A stretch of 64,000 nucleotides of DNA from Acidimicrobiales bacterium (lineage in GTDB: Bacteria; Actinomycetota; Acidimicrobiia; Acidimicrobiales; SZUA-35): contig JAWKIL010000003.1 in assembly GCA_041394285.1 (NCBI GenBank), positions 186,441 through 250,440 of the forward strand, in the 5' to 3' direction. Positions within the stretch are counted from its first letter, which is position 1; each line of letters begins with the position of its first letter. A model generated the notes under the pieces. The model saw nothing but the letters and a program-made list of their open reading frames with translations. It was not told the origin of the DNA and searched no databases. The position numbers were made by a program, and so were the translations under genes. This document shows positions 378 through 53,530 of the stretch, one piece after another.

Positions 378-890
378 ATGGCGCTCAACCGGAACGTCGG
401 CGACCGATTCCCCGACGTCACGATGGTCGACGACCGGGGCCAGGCCCGGACGATCAGCGAGGTGGCCGACGGCCAGCCGCTGTTCCTCGCTTTCTTCCGC
501 GGCCCGTGGTGACCCAAGTGCCAGCTGCAGCTGCGAGAGCTGGTCGAGTTCTCTGAGTCAACCGCCGTCTCCTACCAGCGGCTCGCCGTGGTCTCGGTGG
601 ACCCGCCCCGGGTGCTGGAGGCGTTCAAGGCCGGGCTGGGTGCCCGCTTCCCTTTCCTCAGCGACGAGGGCCGGGCCGTCACCAACGAGCTCGGCATCGC
701 CGAGCACACCGATACCCGCCACGGCCCCCTCCCGGTGCCCTTCACCTTCGCCCTGCTGCCCGACCTCACGATCAGCCACATCTGGAACGGGTGGTACTTC
801 GTGGGGCGGCCCACACCGGAGGAGCTGCGCCGGGCCGCCCGGGAGATCATGGACCGGGTGGTGCCCGACCTCGACTTCCGGGGGGACTGA
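378..890 (+). CDS. AhpC/TSA-family thiol redoxin with an in-frame TGA (510..512) at the first Cys of the WCxxC motif; candidate selenoprotein (alternative: TGC->TGA pseudogene)
   Basis: ATG 378 has GAGGAG 5 nt upstream. The frame is open to 890 apart from one TGA. The context FFRGPW-TGA-PKCQLQLREL matches the redoxin WCxxC motif. The C-terminal part is the track ORF 588..890. High GC3 continues on both sides of the TGA. Confidence 0.6.
521..543 (+). promoter_or_regulatory. candidate bacterial SECIS-like hairpin downstream of UGA 510..512
   Basis: Perfect 6-bp stem CCAGCT (521..526) / AGCTGG (538..543) with an 11-nt loop starting with G. It begins 8 nt after the UGA. Confidence 0.35.
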
Positions 891-891
891 G

Positions 892-929
892 GGAGCCCTT
901 CGGGCTCCTTGGGTTCGCCTGGGGCGAAC
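892..929. terminator. two adjacent GC-rich hairpins between convergent genes (bidirectional terminator candidate)
   Basis: First hairpin: GGAGCCC (892..898) / GGGCTCC (902..908), followed by TT. Second hairpin: GTTCGCC (913..919) / GGCGAAC (923..929). They lie between stop 890 (+) and stop 956 (-). Confidence 0.5.
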
Positions 930-955
930 GCCTGGGGGAGCCCTTCGGCGAGGAA

Positions 956-2128: not shown

Positions 2129-3754
2129 TCAGTAGAGGTCGCAGGTACCACCCGACTGCTGGAAGTTGCAGTTCTTGGACGCTCCGTCGAGGTTGAACAC
2201 CTCGGTCTTGGAGAGGTAGCTCTGCTTGGCCACGTCGAACTGCTGGTAGACGCCGCCTTCGGTGTAGTAGGAGTCCTTGTTGCCGTCGACGTGGAAGACC
2301 ATGCCGGGTAGCTGCAAGGGGTTGTTCATGTCGAGCGCCCGGGCGGCCAGGATGGTGTTGGCCCGGGTGAGGCCACCGTCGAGCTGACCGGCGATCTCCA
2401 GCACCTGGACCCACGCCCAGCCGTAGAGAACACCGAGGCCGAGCTCAGCGGCCGAGTCGGGGTCGTCGCCGTGGGCCGTGATCAGGTCACGCGCCCACAC
2501 GATGGCCGGGTCGCTCTGCTGCTCGGGGTCGCGCACGTCCTTGGAGCCGCCGTTGACGATCCACCAGCCTTCGGAGGCCGAGCCGTCGCCGCCCACCTTC
2601 TCCTTGGAGAGCTGGGTGGAGCCGGCGCAGGTGTTGGGCTGCCACAGGTACTTCACGTCCTGCTGCATCCCGTTCTGGCCCGCCTCGATCACGGCCTGGG
2701 TGCAGAAGGTGCCGGCCACCATGGCGATGAAGATGTCGGGCTTCTTGGAGCCCAGCGTGGTCATCTGGTTGGTGATCGTGGGCGACTGGGGATCGACGTT
2801 CTCGGTCACGTAGGTGACCTTGTCCTTGATCGGGGTGGTCTCCAGCCAGGCCTTGAAGCCGACGTCGTAGATCTTGCCGAACTCGTTCGCCTCGACCAGG
2901 GAGGCCACGGTCACGCCGTCGGGGAACTCGTCGATGTGGTCCTCGATGAACGAGCCCCACAGCACGGCCTCGGTGGTGTAGGCCAGGCCCAGGCCGGTGG
3001 TCCAGGGGTGGTTCTCGGGATCACCCCAGGCCGGGTGACCAGTCTGGTTGAACAGGTGGGGCACGCAGCGCTGGTTCAGCTTGTCGTAGGTCTTGAGGGT
3101 GTTGGGCGAGCCCAGCGTCACCTGGCCGAAGACCTTCTCGGAGTCGAGGAACTCATCGACCAGAGGCACGGTCTTGGCCGGGTCGTAGCCGTCGTCCTTC
3201 TGGATGTAGTTGATCGTCCGGGTCTTGCCCGTCGAATCGGTGAAGGCGCCCTTCTCTCCGTAGTAGTCGAAGATGGCCTCCTGGCCCTTGCCGTAGTTGG
3301 CGGCGTAGGCGAGGGTGCCCGACTGGGCCAGCGTCTGGCCGATCTTGATCTCGGTGTCGGTGATGCCCTCGGTCTCGTTCCAGCCGGCCGCGCACTTCGA
3401 CAGGTCGACGGTGAAGCCCTCGGGGCCGGTGAGCGTGTTGCCGTCGGCCGAGACGCCCCACCCGTTGTCCTTGATGCGGGTGACGATGGCCTCGCGCTGG
3501 GCCGCCCACAGGGTTTCCCAGCCTTCCATGTCGGTGGGCAGCTTGGTGGGATCGGTGACCGCCTCACCCGAGGTCTCGCCGGCCTCGATGGCCAGCGACA
3601 CCGAGGTTGTGGTGCCCGCTTCGGTGGTGGCCGTGGCCCCACCGCTGTCGGTGGTCTCGGTGCCCGAACCGCTGTCACTACTACTGCCGCACGCGGACGC
3701 GACGAGGGACATCCCCATCGCGGCGATGAGCAGCCTCCTGCGTGGAGCTCTCAT
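2129..3754 (-). CDS. ABC-type substrate-binding lipoprotein, LivK/Peripla_BP_6-like (paralog 1)
   Basis: I trimmed the start to ATG 3754, which has GGGGAGAAG upstream. Signal and lipobox: MRAPRRRLLIAAMGMSLVASAC-GSS. The body resembles branched-chain amino acid-type binding proteins. Confidence 0.7.
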   Translation of the reverse strand: MRAPRRRLLIAAMGMSLVASACGSSSDSGSGTETTDSGGATATTEAGTTTSVSLAIEAGETSGEAVTDPTKLPTDMEGWETLWAAQREAIVTRIKDNGWGVSADGNTLTGPEGFTVDLSKCAAGWNETEGITDTEIKIGQTLAQSGTLAYAANYGKGQEAIFDYYGEKGAFTDSTGKTRTINYIQKDDGYDPAKTVPLVDEFLDSEKVFGQVTLGSPNTLKTYDKLNQRCVPHLFNQTGHPAWGDPENHPWTTGLGLAYTTEAVLWGSFIEDHIDEFPDGVTVASLVEANEFGKIYDVGFKAWLETTPIKDKVTYVTENVDPQSPTITNQMTTLGSKKPDIFIAMVAGTFCTQAVIEAGQNGMQQDVKYLWQPNTCAGSTQLSKEKVGGDGSASEGWWIVNGGSKDVRDPEQQSDPAIVWARDLITAHGDDPDSAAELGLGVLYGWAWVQVLEIAGQLDGGLTRANTILAARALDMNNPLQLPGMVFHVDGNKDSYYTEGGVYQQFDVAKQSYLSKTEVFNLDGASKNCNFQQSGGTCDLY

Positions 3755-3908
3755 ACTCTTCTCCCCTTGTGAACGCTGCACGGTTCTCGGCAGCGGGCGC
3801 AACCCTAGCTCACGCCCCCACCAGCCGCGCAAAGGCAGCAGCGAGACGCCTGCAATCTGTAACCCGGCCGTATCGGCCCGGTGTCAGGGGATGGGGAGAA
3901 TCAGCAGG

Positions 3909-5537
3909 TCAGTAGAGCTCGCAGGTACCTCCCTGTTGTTGGAAGTTGCAGTTCTTCGACGCTCCGTCGAGGTTGAAGATCTCGGTCTTGGAGACGTAGC
4001 TCTGCTTGGCCACGTCGAACTGTTGGAACACCCCGCCCTCGGTGTAGTAGGAGTCCTTGTTGCCGTCGACGTGGAAGACCATGCCGGGTAGCTGCAGGGG
4101 GTTGTTCATGTCGAGCGCCCGGGCGGCCAGGATGGTGTTGGCCCGGGTGAGGCCGCCGTCGAGCTCTCCGGCGATCATCAGCACCTGGGCCCAGGCCCAG
4201 CCGTAGATCATCCCCAGGCCGAGCTCCACCGCCGAGTCGGGATCGTCGCCGTGGGCCTCCAGGATCTCGCGGGCCCAGATCACGGCCGGATCGGCCTGCT
4301 GCTCGGGATCCCGGATGTCCTTGGAGCCGCCGTTGACGATCCACCAGCCCTCCGAAGCCGAGCCGTCGCCGCCCACCTTCTCCTTGGAGAGCTGGGTGGA
4401 GCCGGCGCAGGTGTTGGGCTGCCACAGGTACTGCACGGCTTCCTTCATCCCGTTCTGGCCCGCCTCGATCACGGCCTGGGCGCAGAAGGTGCCGGCCACC
4501 ATGGCGATGAACACCTGGGGATTCTTGGAGCCCAGGGTGGTCATCTGGTTGGTGATCGTGGGGGCCTGGGGGTCGACGGTCTCGCTGATGTAGGTGACCT
4601 TGTCCTTCACCGGGCTCGATTCGAGCCAGGCCCGGAAGCCGACGTCGTAGATCTTGCCGAACTCGTTCGCCATCACCAGGGAGGCCACGGTCACGCCGTC
4701 GGGCCATTCGTCGATGTGGTCCTCGATGAACGAGCCCCACAGCACGGCCTCGGTGGTGTAGGCGAGGCCCAGGCCGGTGGTCCAGGGGTGGTTTTTGGGA
4801 TCGCCCCAGGCCGGGTGACCGGTCTGGTTGAACAGGTGGGGCACGCAGCGCTGGTTGATCTTGTCGTAGGTCTTGAGGGTGTTGGGCGAGCCCAGCGTCA
4901 CCTGGCCGAAGACCTTCTCGGAGTCGAGGAACTCGTCGACGTAGGGGACGGTCTTGGCCGGGTCGTACCCGTCGTCCTTCACGATGTAGTTGACCTTGCG
5001 GGTCTTGCCGGCGGAGTCGGTGAAGGCGCCCTTGTCTCCGTAGTACTGGAGGATGGCGTCCTGGCCCTTGCCGTAGTTGGCGGCGGCGGCCAGGGTGCCG
5101 GACAGGGCCAGGGTCTGGCCGATCTTGATCTCGGTGTCGGTCAGACCCTCCGTCTGGTCCCAGCCGGAGGGACACTGCGACAGATCGACGGTGAAGCCCT
5201 CGGGGCCGGTGAGCGTCTTGCCGTCGGCCGAGACGCCCCAGTTGTTCTCCTGGATGCGGGTGACGATGGCCTCCCGCTGGGCTGCCCACAGGGCCTCCCA
5301 GCCCTCCATGTCGGTCGGCAGCTCGGTGCCGTCGGTGATGGCGGCGCCGCTGAACTCCCCGGCGTCGATGGCCAGCGAGACCGACGTGGTGGTGCCGGCC
5401 TCCGTGGTGGCCGTCGCCCCGCCGCTGTCCGCCGTCTCGGTACCCGACCCGCTGTCGCTGCTGCTGCCGCACGCTGCTGCTACGAGGCTGAGCCCCGCGA
5501 ACACCGCGACGAACAGCCTCCCCCCTGGAGCGCTCAT
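3909..5537 (-). CDS. ABC-type substrate-binding lipoprotein, LivK/Peripla_BP_6-like (paralog 2)
   Basis: I trimmed the start to ATG 5537, which has GGGGGAAGAG upstream. Lipobox: LSLVAAAC-GSS. By eye it is about 85% identical to paralog 1. Confidence 0.7.
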   Translation of the reverse strand: MSAPGGRLFVAVFAGLSLVAAACGSSSDSGSGTETADSGGATATTEAGTTTSVSLAIDAGEFSGAAITDGTELPTDMEGWEALWAAQREAIVTRIQENNWGVSADGKTLTGPEGFTVDLSQCPSGWDQTEGLTDTEIKIGQTLALSGTLAAAANYGKGQDAILQYYGDKGAFTDSAGKTRKVNYIVKDDGYDPAKTVPYVDEFLDSEKVFGQVTLGSPNTLKTYDKINQRCVPHLFNQTGHPAWGDPKNHPWTTGLGLAYTTEAVLWGSFIEDHIDEWPDGVTVASLVMANEFGKIYDVGFRAWLESSPVKDKVTYISETVDPQAPTITNQMTTLGSKNPQVFIAMVAGTFCAQAVIEAGQNGMKEAVQYLWQPNTCAGSTQLSKEKVGGDGSASEGWWIVNGGSKDIRDPEQQADPAVIWAREILEAHGDDPDSAVELGLGMIYGWAWAQVLMIAGELDGGLTRANTILAARALDMNNPLQLPGMVFHVDGNKDSYYTEGGVFQQFDVAKQSYVSKTEIFNLDGASKNCNFQQQGGTCELY

Positions 5538-5739
5538 CTCTTCTCTTCCCCCTCGGGCCACCGCAACGCGACGGCTCTGGGCGAGAGCATAACCAGCTGG
5601 TGTGACGGCGACAAGCGTGGGGAGCATTGGTTCGAGCGGTTTGCCGGCCCGGTCGGCTCGGCCGGGAGCCAATGCGGACCGCTCCGGTAGCCGGTGGTAG
5701 CTTCGCCCAACGGGGACCGGCGATCGGGGAGGTGACGCC

Positions 5740-7005
5740 ATGGTGGTGGCCCGACCGGCTGTGGCTGCGCCGCGGCGAGGCGCTTTCGCCTGTTTCTCCG
5801 TGCCGTCCTACCCGACGCTGTGGCTCAGCGGTTGGTGCTGGACCGCCACCCGCCAGCTCTCGGTGTTCCTCGGGGCGTTCCTGGTCAACGAGCTCACCGG
5901 CTCGCCCCTGCGGGTACAGCTGGTGGGCACGATGTTCTTCCTGCCCATGTTCCTGGGAGGCATCGTGGCCGGCGTGGTGTCGGACCGGTTCGACCGGCGG
6001 CGCACGATGATGCGCCAGCTCCTGGCCCTCACCCCGGTCACAGTGGGCATGGCCGCCGTGACCCGCTCGGGCCACCTGGCGGTGTGGATGGTGTACGCCC
6101 TGATGCTGTGCGTGGGGGTGGGCGGGGTGCTCGACATGACCTCCCGCCGGGCCCTGGTGATCGACCTGGTGGGGCCCGAGCGGGCCACCAATGCCGTGGC
6201 CATGGAGGCCTTCGCCATGTCGTCGGGTACCACGATCGGGATCCTGGCCGGCGGCGCTCTGCTGCGATGGGTAGGCCCCGAGGGCACCTATCTGATGATC
6301 GCCGGGTTGTACGCCACCTCAGCCGTGCTGCTCCGGCGGGTGGTGGTGCCCGAACGGGCCCGGGCCGGCGGCGGGGCCGGCGGGAGCTCCGGTGAGCCGG
6401 CTCCGGCCACGGCGCTGCGGGCCGACTTCATGGAAGGGGTGCGCCTGCTGCGCACCGAGAAGCCGCTGGTGTCGCTGCTCGGCGTGACCGTGCTGATGAA
6501 CTTCTTCTTCTACTCCCACACCCCGCTGGTGCCGGTGATCGCCAAGAACCTCGGGGCCGACCCGTTCCAGGCGGCCCTGCTCTCGGCCGGGGCGGGTGTG
6601 GGGACGATGGTGGGCTCGCTGGTGGTGGCGTCCCGCAACCCGGCCCGGCGGGGGCTGCTGTATCTGGGGGCGACGCTGTCGGCCATGGCCACCCTCAACC
6701 TGTTCGCCCATGCACCGGCGTACCACCTGGCGCTGCCGGCGTTGATGGCGGCCGCGCTGTGCTCGTCTGGGTTCAGCTCCACCCAGAGCTCGATCGCCAT
6801 GACCGTGGTGAGCGACCGGGTGCGGGGCCGGGCCATGGGCCTGGTGTCGATGGCGATCGGGGCCCTGCCGTTCGGGATGTTCGTGCTCGGCGTGGCGGCC
6901 CAGCGCCTCGGGCCGCCCGAGGCGCTCACGATCATGACCGTCACCGGCATCGCCCTTACCATCGCCTGGAACGCGTGGCGGCCGGAGTTGCGGCGGGTGC
7001 GCTAG
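5740..7005 (+). CDS. MFS transporter
   Basis: 421 aa with about 12 hydrophobic segments. It carries the MFS loop motif GVVSDRFDRRR. GGGGAGG lies upstream of ATG 5740. Confidence 0.8.
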   Translation: MVVARPAVAAPRRGAFACFSVPSYPTLWLSGWCWTATRQLSVFLGAFLVNELTGSPLRVQLVGTMFFLPMFLGGIVAGVVSDRFDRRRTMMRQLLALTPVTVGMAAVTRSGHLAVWMVYALMLCVGVGGVLDMTSRRALVIDLVGPERATNAVAMEAFAMSSGTTIGILAGGALLRWVGPEGTYLMIAGLYATSAVLLRRVVVPERARAGGGAGGSSGEPAPATALRADFMEGVRLLRTEKPLVSLLGVTVLMNFFFYSHTPLVPVIAKNLGADPFQAALLSAGAGVGTMVGSLVVASRNPARRGLLYLGATLSAMATLNLFAHAPAYHLALPALMAAALCSSGFSSTQSSIAMTVVSDRVRGRAMGLVSMAIGALPFGMFVLGVAAQRLGPPEALTIMTVTGIALTIAWNAWRPELRRVR

Positions 7006-7087: not shown

Positions 7088-8690
7088 TCAGCTCACTTGC
7101 AGGCGGCAGCGGTCTGGTCCCAGGCGCAGGGCGAGGACTTGCCCGACAGCTCGATGATGCCGAGATCCTCCTGCTTGGCCCACGTCTGCTGGGTGCCGTC
7201 GAACACGGCGAACTCCGAGCCCTCGGTGGGGTACGGATCGTCGTTGCCGGCCATGTTGTACTTGATCCCCTCCAGCAGGTTGGGGTTCGTCATGTCCAGC
7301 ATCCGGGCCGCCAGCATGAAGTTGGGTCGGCTCAGCCCACCGGGCAGATCGGCCGCCAGCTTGAGGGCCTGCACGGTCGGCCAGCCGAAGGCGAACCCGT
7401 TGCCGAGCTGGCTCGAATCCTCCGACGGGTGGCCGGCCTTGGTCAGCAGGTCCCGGGCCCACGCAACCCACACGTTGTCGGCGTTGTTGGCGTCGTTGAA
7501 GTCGAGACCGCCGCCGCCCACGATCCACCAGCCGTCGGCGGCCAAGCCGTCGCCGCCCACCTTGTCCTTGCCGACGAAGTTCAGACCCTTGCACACCGAG
7601 GGCATGAACAGCATCGTGCACGCTGTCCTTCATCCCGTTGTTGGCGGCCTCGGTGATGGCCTGGGTGCACGAGGTGCCGGCCGTCATGGCGATGAACACG
7701 TCGGGGTTCTTCGACGCCAGCGTGGTCATCTGGTTGGTGATGGTCGGCGCCGTGGGCTCGATCCGCTCGAACACGAAGTTGATCTTCAGCTTCGAGGTCT
7801 TGATGAACTCGTTGAACCCGAGCTCGTAGGCCTTGCCGAAGTCGTTCTGCATGATCAGGCCGGCGACCGTGATCTCCGGCTGGTCGGCGAACTTCTTCTC
7901 CAGCAGACCGCCCCACAGGATGGCCTCGGTGTTGTAGGCCAGCTGGTGGCCCCACACCCACGGGTGGTTGGCCGGGTCACCCCAGGCGGGGTGGCCCGAC
8001 ATCACGTAGGGATCGGGCACGCAGCGCTGGTTCAGCTTGTCGTACACCTTCATGGTGTTGGGCGAGCCCAGCGTCTGGATGGCGAACGACCCGGTGGAGT
8101 CGAGCAGCTCGTCCACCAGCGGCACGGTCTTGGCCGCGTCGTAGGCGTCGTCCTTGAGCGTGTTCTCGATGGTGTAGGTCTTGCCCTCGGAATCGGTGAT
8201 GCCGCCCTCGGCGTTGATGTAGTCGTAGTAGATCTTCTGGGCCAGGCCGATGTTGCCGTAGTCGGCCAGCGTGCCCGACTGGGCGAGCGTCTGGCCGATC
8301 GTGATCTTGCCCTCACCCAGGCCGCCGTAGGCGTCCCAACCGGCGGGGCACGTCGACAGGTCGACCTGGAAGCCGCCGGGCCCGGTGACCGTGTTGGCCG
8401 CCTGGTCCCACTGCCAGCCTTCGGCCTCGGCCTTGGCCACCAGGTCGGCCCGCTGGGTGTCCCACAGCGCCTCCCAGTCGGCGATGGTCTTGATGTCGGA
8501 CACCGGCGTGGCGTTGGCATCGGCGGCGGTCGTCGACGTGTTCCCCAGCGCCGACCTCCGCCGCTCGGCGACGTCTTCGCGTCGATGTTGGTTGCGCCGG
8601 TCTCGGTGTTGGCGTCGTCGCTGCCGCTACTTCCGCACGCACCGGCCGCGGAGGCCGAGCGCAGAACAGGACAGCAAAGGCCCTCGACAT
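7088..8690 (-). pseudogene. decayed third paralog of the substrate-binding lipoprotein (at least 3 frame changes)
   Basis: Homologous sequence is spread over three frames. The ATG 8690 (MSRAFAVLF) is in one frame, the lipobox AAGACGSSGSDD in a second, the body 8503..about 7615 in a third, and the C-terminus 7614..7093 is shifted again (CAC-G-ATG near 7615). Confidence 0.7.
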
Positions 8691-52138: not shown

Positions 52139-53530
52139 ATGGTCCCCCCGGCTCCGGAGCAGCAACCCCGCTCCCTCCCCGTTCCTGCGCCCGGTCGGGC
52201 CGCAGCCGAGGCGTTCGTCATCACGCACCTGGCCCACCTCGTCGATCGGCGGGCGGCGGCCAACCAGCCGCTCTCCTCCGCCCGGTTCCGGGGCGGCCAG
52301 CGGGCCGCCGACGAGGCCCTGGCCCGGTTCCGGGTCGAGGGCTACCAGCACGGCATCGAGATCGCCTACCCCCAGCGTGATCGCGCCGGCTCGGTACTCT
52401 CCCCCTGGGTCCGCAACGGGCTGCTCCCCCTGGGCCGGCTGTGGGACCATGTGGCCGACGGCCCTCCCGCCGACGTCGCCGCCTTCCGGTGGTCGCTGCT
52501 GCGCTCCGAACGGGCCCGGCTCCGTTACGCCGCCGGCGCGGCATCGCCCGCCGGTTCCCGGGCGTCCGCCCCGGCCGAGCCCGCACGCCGCCCGGAGTCC
52601 ACCGCCCCCGGGCTCGCCGTCGGCTGGGACCGCCAGATGGCCTGTGTCGACGTCGCCCTCGACGAGTTGGCCGACGACGGCTGGCTCCCCACCTCACCCC
52701 GGCGCTGGCTGGCCCAGCTGTGCGACGGCGGCTCCGACGGCGACCTGTTCCGCCACCTCCTCGACGGCACCCGGGCCGTCACGCCGCCGGCCTGGGCCGC
52801 GGCCCGGGCCGCGACCCCGGTCTCCCGCTGGCAGGTGGAACGCCACGCCCCCGGCCTGTGCGCCAGCTGCGACCTGGTGACCGCCTGCCCGGTAGACCAC
52901 GAGCTGCCCACCCTGGTGGCCCCGTCGGGCCGTCACTCCGGCCCGGCCGGTGCGATCGACGCCCCGGGCCACGCCGTCGATGACGGGCCCCTACCCCCGT
53001 TGCCCGCCGAAGCCCTCGGGCCCGACGCGCCCACCACCCGGGCCGACCGGGCCCCCGAGGCGGTGTGGATCACGGCCGAGTCGATGGGTGACGCCGATCC
53101 CGGGCTCGTCGCCCACCCCGACCTTCCCGCTGTGTTCGTCTTCGACGAGCCGCTGCTGACCGGGCTCCGCCTCGCCCCCCGACGGCTGGTTTTCCTGGTG
53201 GAGCACCTGAGTGACCTCGCCACCCGCCGCCCGGTCGAGGTATGGCTGGGCTCCCCGGTGGCCGTCCTGGCCGACCGGCCGGTGGCCGTCACATTCACCC
53301 CCGTGCCCGGGTGGCACCGGCGCCAGGCCCGGATCGCCCCGGTGATGATCCATCCATGGCCCTGGTTGGGGCGACATCTCAGTGCCCCGGGAATTGGCGG
53401 CCAAACGGCAAATGCCATCGATGTAATGAAAACTGGGGGGAGTCAGTTTCCCCATCCCCGACCCATTGACCAGCAGGAACCATCAGCCACAGAATCTTCA
53501 ACTGGTCGTAACATTGGGGCACTGGTGTAG
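52139..53530 (+). CDS. photolyase/cryptochrome-related protein with apparently reversed domain order
   Basis: The N-terminal part has FAD_binding_7-like motifs (FRGGQRAADEALARF, RDRAGSVLSPW, DELADDGWLPTSPRRW). The C-terminal part resembles the photolyase alpha/beta domain (AVFVFDEPLL...RRLVFLVEHLSDL). The last 40 codons run into an AT-richer region. Confidence 0.45.
   Translation: MVPPAPEQQPRSLPVPAPGRAAAEAFVITHLAHLVDRRAAANQPLSSARFRGGQRAADEALARFRVEGYQHGIEIAYPQRDRAGSVLSPWVRNGLLPLGRLWDHVADGPPADVAAFRWSLLRSERARLRYAAGAASPAGSRASAPAEPARRPESTAPGLAVGWDRQMACVDVALDELADDGWLPTSPRRWLAQLCDGGSDGDLFRHLLDGTRAVTPPAWAAARAATPVSRWQVERHAPGLCASCDLVTACPVDHELPTLVAPSGRHSGPAGAIDAPGHAVDDGPLPPLPAEALGPDAPTTRADRAPEAVWITAESMGDADPGLVAHPDLPAVFVFDEPLLTGLRLAPRRLVFLVEHLSDLATRRPVEVWLGSPVAVLADRPVAVTFTPVPGWHRRQARIAPVMIHPWPWLGRHLSAPGIGGQTANAIDVMKTGGSQFPHPRPIDQQEPSATESSTGRNIGALV
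53466..53495 (+). promoter_or_regulatory. possible sigma-70-type promoter (TTGACC - 18 nt - CAGAAT)
   Basis: Read in the only AT-richer stretch upstream of 53533. The call rests on a pattern match only. Confidence 0.25.

Follow-up and report, generated by a model that had tools for sequence, protein, structure and literature searches.

A predicted selenoprotein gene of the peroxiredoxin-like UxxC type, split by annotation, in DNA of an uncultured Acidimicrobiales bacterium

At positions 378 to 890 of the forward strand, the 64-kb stretch of DNA analysed here (hereafter the window) very probably carries a genuine selenoprotein gene of the Prx-like UxxC kind, which has been mis-annotated and in which codon 45 is predicted, on sequence grounds, to encode selenocysteine (Sec). 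A single frame extended from ATG 378 to an ordinary TGA stop at 888-890, its sole interruption being TGA 510-512, codon 45 of 170, and the start codon was preceded, across a 5-nt spacer, by the Shine-Dalgarno-like GAGGAG (367-372). All of these elements, first described in a sequence-only reading of the locus, are indeed present. The peptide surrounding the in-frame TGA reads FFRGPW-[TGA]-PKC, which places the putative Sec codon (U45) at the nucleophile position of a W-U-P-K-C motif and TGC 519-521 (Cys48) at the resolving position of the UxxC. The mechanical ORF list retained just two pieces of the locus, 372-512 (46 aa) and 588-890 (100 aa). Read through, region 378-890 would represent a single intact gene of an uncultured Acidimicrobiales bacterium, encoding a cytoplasmic oxidoreductase of 170 residues with a Prx-like (AhpC/TSA) thioredoxin fold; no signal peptide was evident in the product.

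When translated with Cys at codon 45, the 170-residue product matched the Pfam family AhpC-TSA (PF00578, 6.4e-17, 62.1 bits for a cut-off of 26) and, with a lower score, Redoxin (PF08534, 4.9e-15, 56.1 bits for a cut-off of 26.6), two models which overlap. The earlier assignment to an AhpC/TSA/redoxin fold was thus confirmed at the full length of 170 residues. The G/C-rich third codon positions noticed on either side of the TGA were also recovered, GC3 amounting to 0.95 over the 40 codons before it and to 0.93 over the 40 codons after it. When all 64 kb were scanned in six frames, TGA 510-512 was the only TGA with a strong coding signal on both sides. TGA terminated 16 of the 28 confident window genes and was thereby the commonest stop, from which it follows that the genetic code is standard and that TGA is not globally reassigned. 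No second selenoprotein candidate was found within the 64-kb window, and the few further candidates encountered in related loci were rejected, as they looked like neighbouring genes in a shared frame.

Relatives were gathered by a search of 5.8 billion proteins, which returned 505 sequences, and the best 120 of these were inspected for length. Among these 120, 112 were fragments of 97-123 aa corresponding only to the part downstream of the TGA, and the eight full-length proteins (~50-56 % identity) displayed Cys at the TGA column, within RGxWCPKEQ. A genome set of 81 sequences was then assembled from the window and the DNA of 80 relatives from named genomes, the matched frame being translated. 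TGA occupied the column in 21 of the 81 (the window counted), with an open and conserved N-terminal frame upstream, and the remaining 60, which were more distant homologs, displayed TGC or TGT. Addition of metagenome loci and of the contigs encoding the "fragments" brought the Sec forms to 32 non-redundant sequences, namely the window and 31 other loci, which stem from independent assemblies and represent several phyla. All 32 displayed TGA at the column, and neither TAA nor TAG was ever found there in the 32 Sec forms and 60 Cys forms. Five of these loci (L081-L085), with 78-97 % protein identity to the window, retained the TGA while synonymous sites close to it varied (CCC/CCG/CCA, AAG/AAA and TGC/TGT). 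The sequence-only reading had proposed an alignment of homologs at position 45 and a look at whether close relatives carry both TGA and a hairpin; the former separated 32 TGA forms from 60 TGC/TGT forms, and the latter showed that the five closest loci keep the TGA and that a hairpin, at 535-553 in the window, recurs in every member of the window's subgroup (see below).

Selection was estimated from comparisons of the window with 15 relatives. Over the 44 codons upstream of the TGA, dN/dS ranged from 0.07 to 0.5 in 14 of the 15 comparisons, the remaining one yielding 0.99 from few sites; over the 125 codons downstream, it ranged from 0.07 to 0.56. None of the 15 relatives displayed stops or frameshifts in the upstream codons, and all 15 kept the start position, as either ATG or GTG. 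As judged from these ratios, both sides of the TGA are under purifying selection.

These observations bear directly on the possibility of a pseudogene or of a sequencing or assembly error, in which the A at 512 would be a lesion or miscall in a TGC and the gene either dead or Cys-encoding. The codon is indeed one base away from TGC, and the more distant homologs have TGC or TGT. The same column nevertheless holds TGA in 31 other loci, the 78-97 % identical ones included; the window gene shows no other lesion, and its dN/dS stays below 1 on both sides. In addition, the 32 Sec forms grouped in a neighbour-joining tree as one clade with no Cys form inside, their column being TGA throughout. This explanation appears extremely improbable, and the two doubts that had been voiced with the initial proposal, namely that close relatives might have TGC or that base 512 might be an assembly error, are both contradicted by these comparisons.

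A further explanation holds that the locus specifies two products, a 44-residue N-terminal peptide and a C-terminal protein initiated at an internal start. It draws on public annotations of the relatives, which all split the gene into pieces of 44 aa and 97-121 aa, as had been anticipated of standard gene callers. The annotated C-terminal fragments, however, differ in length (97, 99, 100, 102, 107, 115 and 121 aa) and the internal start is inconsistent among relatives. In the window, the internal start would be GTG 588, which would remove the conserved active-site helix (residues 46-70), a stretch that is highly conserved and contains the covarying hairpin. The full-length Cys homologs are single polypeptides, and the predicted fold requires both parts. 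A two-product organization is accordingly hard to credit. Conservation of the TGA, selection on both of its sides and the standard code, taken together, led us to exclude sequencing error, pseudogene and split gene, and to retain a single gene whose UGA 510-512 would be decoded as selenocysteine, with Sec presumably being inserted rather than another residue.

A recoding signal was sought by applying RNAfold to the 57 nt following the Sec codon. The same hairpin of 7 bp with a 5-nt loop was obtained, at +23 to +41, for all members of the subgroup defined by RGPW-U-PK-[C/U]QLQLRELV[E/Q]F, to which the window belongs. In the window it corresponds to 535-553 (arms GAGAGCU at 535-541 and AGUUCUC at 547-553, loop GGUCG at 542-546). 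Pairing was scored on an ungapped alignment of 18 members of this subgroup, in which 94.4 % of the cells formed a standard pair, compared with 26-57 % when the partner was slid by one to three columns. Two pairs were changed on both sides (A-U 9, G-C 7 and G-U 2 for one; C-G 17 and U-A 1 for the other), and the outermost pair was open in 7 of the 18. Among 20,000 synonymous recodings of the peptide that followed the codon usage of the window, 1.0 % gave a hairpin as stable as the observed one (P = 0.010), and two rare codons, CGA and TCT, were found to underlie its stability. Both arms of this short hairpin coincide with conserved codons (R-E-L and E-F-S), so that its pairing is partly tied to the protein sequence. 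Rfam contained no family for it, whether at the gathering threshold or at E values up to 10.

The published bacterial SECIS model demands 3-9 nt in the loop and 4-16 bp in the stem, a G within the first two loop positions, a distance from UGA to loop of 16-37 nt and an MFE of at most -7.5 kcal/mol (PMC13188914). Hairpin 535-553 passed every one of these constraints, with its 5-nt loop GGUCG, 7-bp stem and 29-nt spacing; its energy was -7.9 kcal/mol in isolation, just past the threshold, and -9.3 kcal/mol in context. When a strict no-bulge version of the model was uniformly applied, it accepted 18 of the 32 Sec forms compared with 9 of the 60 Cys forms (Fisher P = 7e-5), counts which are not independent events since the sequences are phylogenetically related. 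The 14 Sec forms that failed did so narrowly. The bulk MFE of the downstream region was uninformative in this comparison, because the GC content of the Cys forms is higher and their folds are more stable.

The hairpin initially put forward was another one, CCAGCT/AGCTGG at 521-526/538-543. Its perfect 6-bp stem and its 11-nt loop beginning with G do exist 8 nt after the TGA, but it did not behave as a conserved SECIS element and was rejected as such. Only 75.9 % of its cells were paired in the 18 members (9-63 % in the partner-slid control), no compensatory change was seen and two of its six pairs were broken in 11 of the 18. A stem at least as stable appeared in 30 % of the synonymous recodings (P = 0.30), the local fold around it gave z = -0.4 relative to shuffles, and neither its loop of 11 nt nor its spacing of 14 nt fits the SECIS model. 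Since bases 538-543 are common to both, 521-543 and 535-553 cannot coexist. A selenoprotein gene with 521-543 as its working SECIS, whether by itself or stacked with 535-553, is very unlikely: the window and its closest relatives do have the perfect stem, and the hairpin of the sister subgroup does begin 10-12 nt after the UGA, yet pairing, recoding and geometry all speak against it. Comparative evidence of this type supports 535-553, which overlaps the 3' arm of 521-543, as the predicted SECIS-like hairpin. Two further structures were discarded, namely an outer stem around the UGA (506-516 with 554-565), which was 69 % paired and no better than shuffles, and a 4-bp mini-hairpin at 522-533, which was 87.5 % paired, showed no covariation and was indistinguishable from conservation of the CAG and CTG codons. 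Hairpin 535-553 would act from within the coding sequence, 29 nt downstream of the UGA, as a SelB-type recoding signal that directs Sec decoding.

Components of the Sec machinery were looked for in the available DNA. ARAGORN detected no tRNA-Sec in the 64-kb window or in the 31 loci, tblastn with the E. coli proteins detected no SelA, SelB or SelD in 1.37 Mb of related loci, and Pfam revealed no Sec machinery among the remaining window ORFs. SelA, SelB, SelC and SelD would be expected to be encoded elsewhere in the genome. No conserved gene neighbourhood was found around the redoxin gene, its flanks varying among relatives. The window's TopA displayed 77-83 % identity to MAGs labelled Acidimicrobiales, Acidimicrobiia or Actinomycetota. 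A 6.3-Mb contig (ERZ25072999:ctg322082_33x_c), whose TopA is 81 % identical to that of the window and which shares the topA-tmk-holB order, carries a UxxU copy of the redoxin. Other long sequences among the relatives include the 5.66-Mb contig ERZ26167216:ctg495923_109.28x_c and the chromosomes OY761158.1 and OZ244621.1.

For some bacteria, systems have been proposed in which a SelB-like factor delivers Cys, carried by a tRNA that resembles tRNA-Sec. Such a factor, or else a near-cognate or suppressor tRNA (Trp, Cys or Gly), could in principle read the UGA without Sec. The failure to find Sec machinery in the 64-kb window or in the 1.37 Mb of related loci is in line with this alternative, and a conserved hairpin signals recoding without specifying the inserted residue. 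On the other hand, the codon falls on the redox-active Cys position of a thioredoxin-fold centre, where the homologs have Cys, which is the standard signature of a Sec/Cys pair. The hairpin fits the SelB-type bacterial SECIS model, and general suppression would be costly since TGA is the commonest normal stop. Related lineages carrying the family have moreover been reported to be selenoprotein-rich, and one Methylomirabilota MAG has 63 predicted selenoprotein genes (PMC13188914). Readthrough without Sec is considered very unlikely, and decoding as Sec remains the favoured reading. The original suggestion of Sec at the nucleophilic first Cys of a W-C-x-x-C motif finds strong support in the TGA in 31 further loci, the Cys in 60 homologs, the selection on both sides and the covarying hairpin.

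The Sec and Cys forms differed consistently three codons after the Sec codon. Every Sec form displayed there either Cys or a second TGA (15 UxxC and six UxxU in the genome set), and all 60 Cys forms displayed Glu or Asp, forming a 1-Cys type (WCPKE/D). Since the Sec forms make up one clade, this coupling between Sec and the fourth position is best read as a single origin that was then kept, rather than as a series of independent events. Of the 19 sequences in the window's subgroup, 12 were UxxU, with the second TGA at the position equivalent to 519-521. These UxxU forms were interleaved with UxxC forms, and one of them (L083) shared 87 % identity with the window. The sister subgroup RGYW-U-[PG]K-C, found in Methylomirabilota, Binatia and deltaproteobacterial MAGs, was composed entirely of UxxC forms. 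Its hairpin was also different: it began 10-12 nt past the UGA, its loop lay at +16 to +18, and its arms varied yet stayed complementary (GGUGC/GCACC, AGUGCC/GGCACU and GCGCUGC/GCGGCGC). In the window's subgroup, the loop is separated from the first UGA by 29-30 nt and from the second by 20-21 nt, and the two distances are within 16-37 nt. In the sister subgroup, a hypothetical second UGA would be only 7-9 nt from the loop. From this geometry we infer that hairpin position may fit the confinement of UxxU to the window's subgroup.

More broadly, these sequences may constitute a distinct multi-phylum Prx-like clade, all found members of which are Sec forms. The gain of Sec might have coincided with that of the resolving residue (from 1-Cys WCPKE/D to UxxC/UxxU), UxxC and UxxU might have been switched repeatedly and the position of the SECIS may decide whether a second Sec is decoded. 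This scenario is advanced tentatively and is open to considerable doubt. If true, the clade would allow Se-S and Se-Se redox chemistry to be compared as they occur in nature, in high-GC bacteria of soil and groundwater that are largely aerobic.

Structural aspects were approached through an AlphaFold model of the full-length Cys homolog P0077 (pLDDT 93, pTM 0.90), which displayed a Prx-type thioredoxin fold. Its C43, the equivalent of Sec45, was situated immediately before helix alpha-1 (residues 44-62). The best matches among solved structures were BCP/PrxQ, AhpE and ResA, with TM-scores of 0.7-0.85. In the alignment to BCP 2cx3, Sec45 fell on the Thr/Ser of the Prx motif PxxxT/SxxC and Cys48 on the peroxidatic Cys, and the catalytic Arg of Prx faced an invariant Pro (Pro121). 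This arrangement indicates a Prx scaffold that bears a W-U-x-x-C centre of thioredoxin type, and not a canonical peroxiredoxin. Sec45 would cap the N-terminus of helix alpha-1 and serve as the nucleophile of a thioredoxin-type CxxC centre, attack by the selenolate being the most likely chemistry. Cys48 would resolve Sec45 to a selenenylsulfide, and the protein would cycle between this state and the selenol/thiol. The UxxU relatives would presumably cycle through a diselenide, one hairpin serving both of their UGA codons. The substrate was tentatively considered to be of the thiol:disulfide (or peroxide) type.

For at least 112 related database clusters, as for the window gene, the annotation gives a truncated fragment, labelled "hypothetical" or "peroxiredoxin", and recognition of the Sec codon restores a complete redox enzyme. 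Such recognition would also suggest that these uncultured Acidimicrobiales, like the lineages allied to them, probably use selenium. With pairs of UxxC and UxxU forms up to 87 % identical and with 1-Cys homologs at ~50 %, the clade should be a handy one for testing the benefit of selenium or of a diselenide in a thioredoxin-fold enzyme.

Several known systems were considered for comparison. Like the bacterial SECIS consensus (bSECISearch) and the SECIS of E. coli fdhF, element 535-553 is a stem-loop located within the coding sequence downstream of the UGA. Its loop contains a GGUC which we take to resemble the fdhF SECIS loop. In contrast to these references, it displayed neither a bulged U nor an extended lower stem supported by covariation.

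The Sec peroxiredoxin of Eubacterium acidaminophilum (Prx, PxxxTxxU) has its superfamily and overall fold in common with the window protein. Membership in that family was rejected, as the window protein displays R-G-P-W-U-P-K-C, with Sec on the Thr position, Arg in place of the Pro of PxxxT and Pro121 in place of the catalytic Arg. SelL is likewise a Prx-like protein of thioredoxin fold. Many window relatives resemble it by displaying two Sec codons two codons apart, with one hairpin seemingly for both; according to Shchedrina et al. (in 2007), one SECIS reportedly serves both Sec codons of SelL. SelL was named a Prx-like protein in the GOS paper (PMC2398784). The window copy differs from it in being UxxC, not UxxU. 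Assignment to the SelL-related redox protein family (NCBIfam NF040769) was rejected on its score of 34.2 bits for a cut-off of 120, and no curated NCBIfam model captured the window clade, the best score being 34 bits for a cut-off of 120. For the Redoxin family selenoprotein (PF08534, UxxC; "Prx-like 3"), whose catalogued exemplar is HEU0032618.1, the window product gave 56.1 bits, above the cut-off of 26.6 and below its PF00578 score, the two models overlapping.

Selenoprotein families are defined by their domain and Sec motif (PMC13188914, PMC9312934). Judged by this rule, the combination of PF00578 with Sec at the first position of UxxC/UxxU makes the window gene a member of the "Prx-like thiol:disulfide oxidoreductase" family. 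This family (PF00578; UxxC, UxxU; one or two Sec; catalogue exemplar WP_010940744.1) has been a high-confidence prediction since 2004 (PMC13188914, PMC9312934). It was first predicted by Kryukov and Gladyshev in 2004 and corresponds to what two surveys, Sargasso Sea and GOS, called "Prx-like 1"; the GOS survey contained 225 UxxC sequences of this type (PMC2398784), and a 2016 survey found the family in 28 organisms (PMC5029168). The known picture of bacterial selenoproteins is consequently unchanged, as Prx-like selenoproteins of the UxxC/UxxU type entered the catalogue in 2004-2008. As in the window gene, these oxidoreductases combine PF00578 with Sec at the first position of U-x-x-C or U-x-x-U, their Cys homologs are far more numerous and their function is predicted. 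Compared with the catalogue, the clade of the window is marked by the motif RG[PY]W-U-[PG]K-[CU], by nearest Cys homologs that are 1-Cys (WCPKE/D) and not CxxC, and by its occurrence in high-GC Acidimicrobiales and other soil and groundwater lineages.

In the relatives of the redoxin gene at loci L001-L005, L017, L083 and L090-L094, the active-site column displayed two in-frame TGA codons with two codons between them (W-U-P-K-U). This arrangement implies a diselenide centre, with one hairpin serving both TGA codons. Within the window's subgroup (RGPW-U-PK-[C/U]), the tree had UxxC and UxxU forms interleaved. A 6.3-Mb contig (ERZ25072999:ctg322082_33x_c; loci L091 and L097) encoded a TopA 81% identical to that of the window and shared with it the gene order topA-tmk-holB; its redoxin gene was of the UxxU form.

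Immediately 3' of the SECIS-like hairpin, the stretch TCTGAGTCAACC (window 554-566, plus strand) contains the rare A/T-ending serine codons TCT and TCA, in a genome of 72% GC. It displayed no differences among the nearest relatives. Overall structure of the observed region was weaker than that of synonymous recodings (MFE -13.4 versus a mean of -17.9), and this may reflect avoidance of folds competing with the hairpin.

Two GC-rich hairpins occupy positions 891-930 (plus strand), between the redoxin gene and the next, convergent gene on the minus strand. The first reads GGGAGCCC-TTCG-GGCTCC and the second GTTCGCC-TGGG-GCGAAC; both lack a T-tail, and a consensus terminator scan made no call for either.

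Elsewhere in the window, ARAGORN called an 80-nt tRNA-Trp (anticodon cca) at 52793-52872 on the minus strand, where Rfam detected no tRNA, whether its gathering threshold was applied or E values up to 1 were allowed; the sequence there is GC-rich, and the call is probably spurious. Two near-identical tandem paralogues of ~585-630 aa each (2132-3883 and 3912-5807, minus strand) display a lipoprotein-like signal followed by a Ser/Gly/Thr-rich N-terminus, and resemble solute-binding proteins. They are accompanied by a shorter, third related piece nearby (7096-7629, minus strand). The arrangement has the appearance of a recent tandem duplication.

The sister subgroup, RGYW-U-[PG]K-C, is composed of Methylomirabilota, Binatia and deltaproteobacterial MAGs. 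In its loci L007-L016, L019, L023, L025 and L031, considered over 10-40 nt after the TGA, the hairpin lies nearer the UGA and the loop falls at +16 to +18. The two arms complement each other, yet their sequence varies and their register shifts from member to member.
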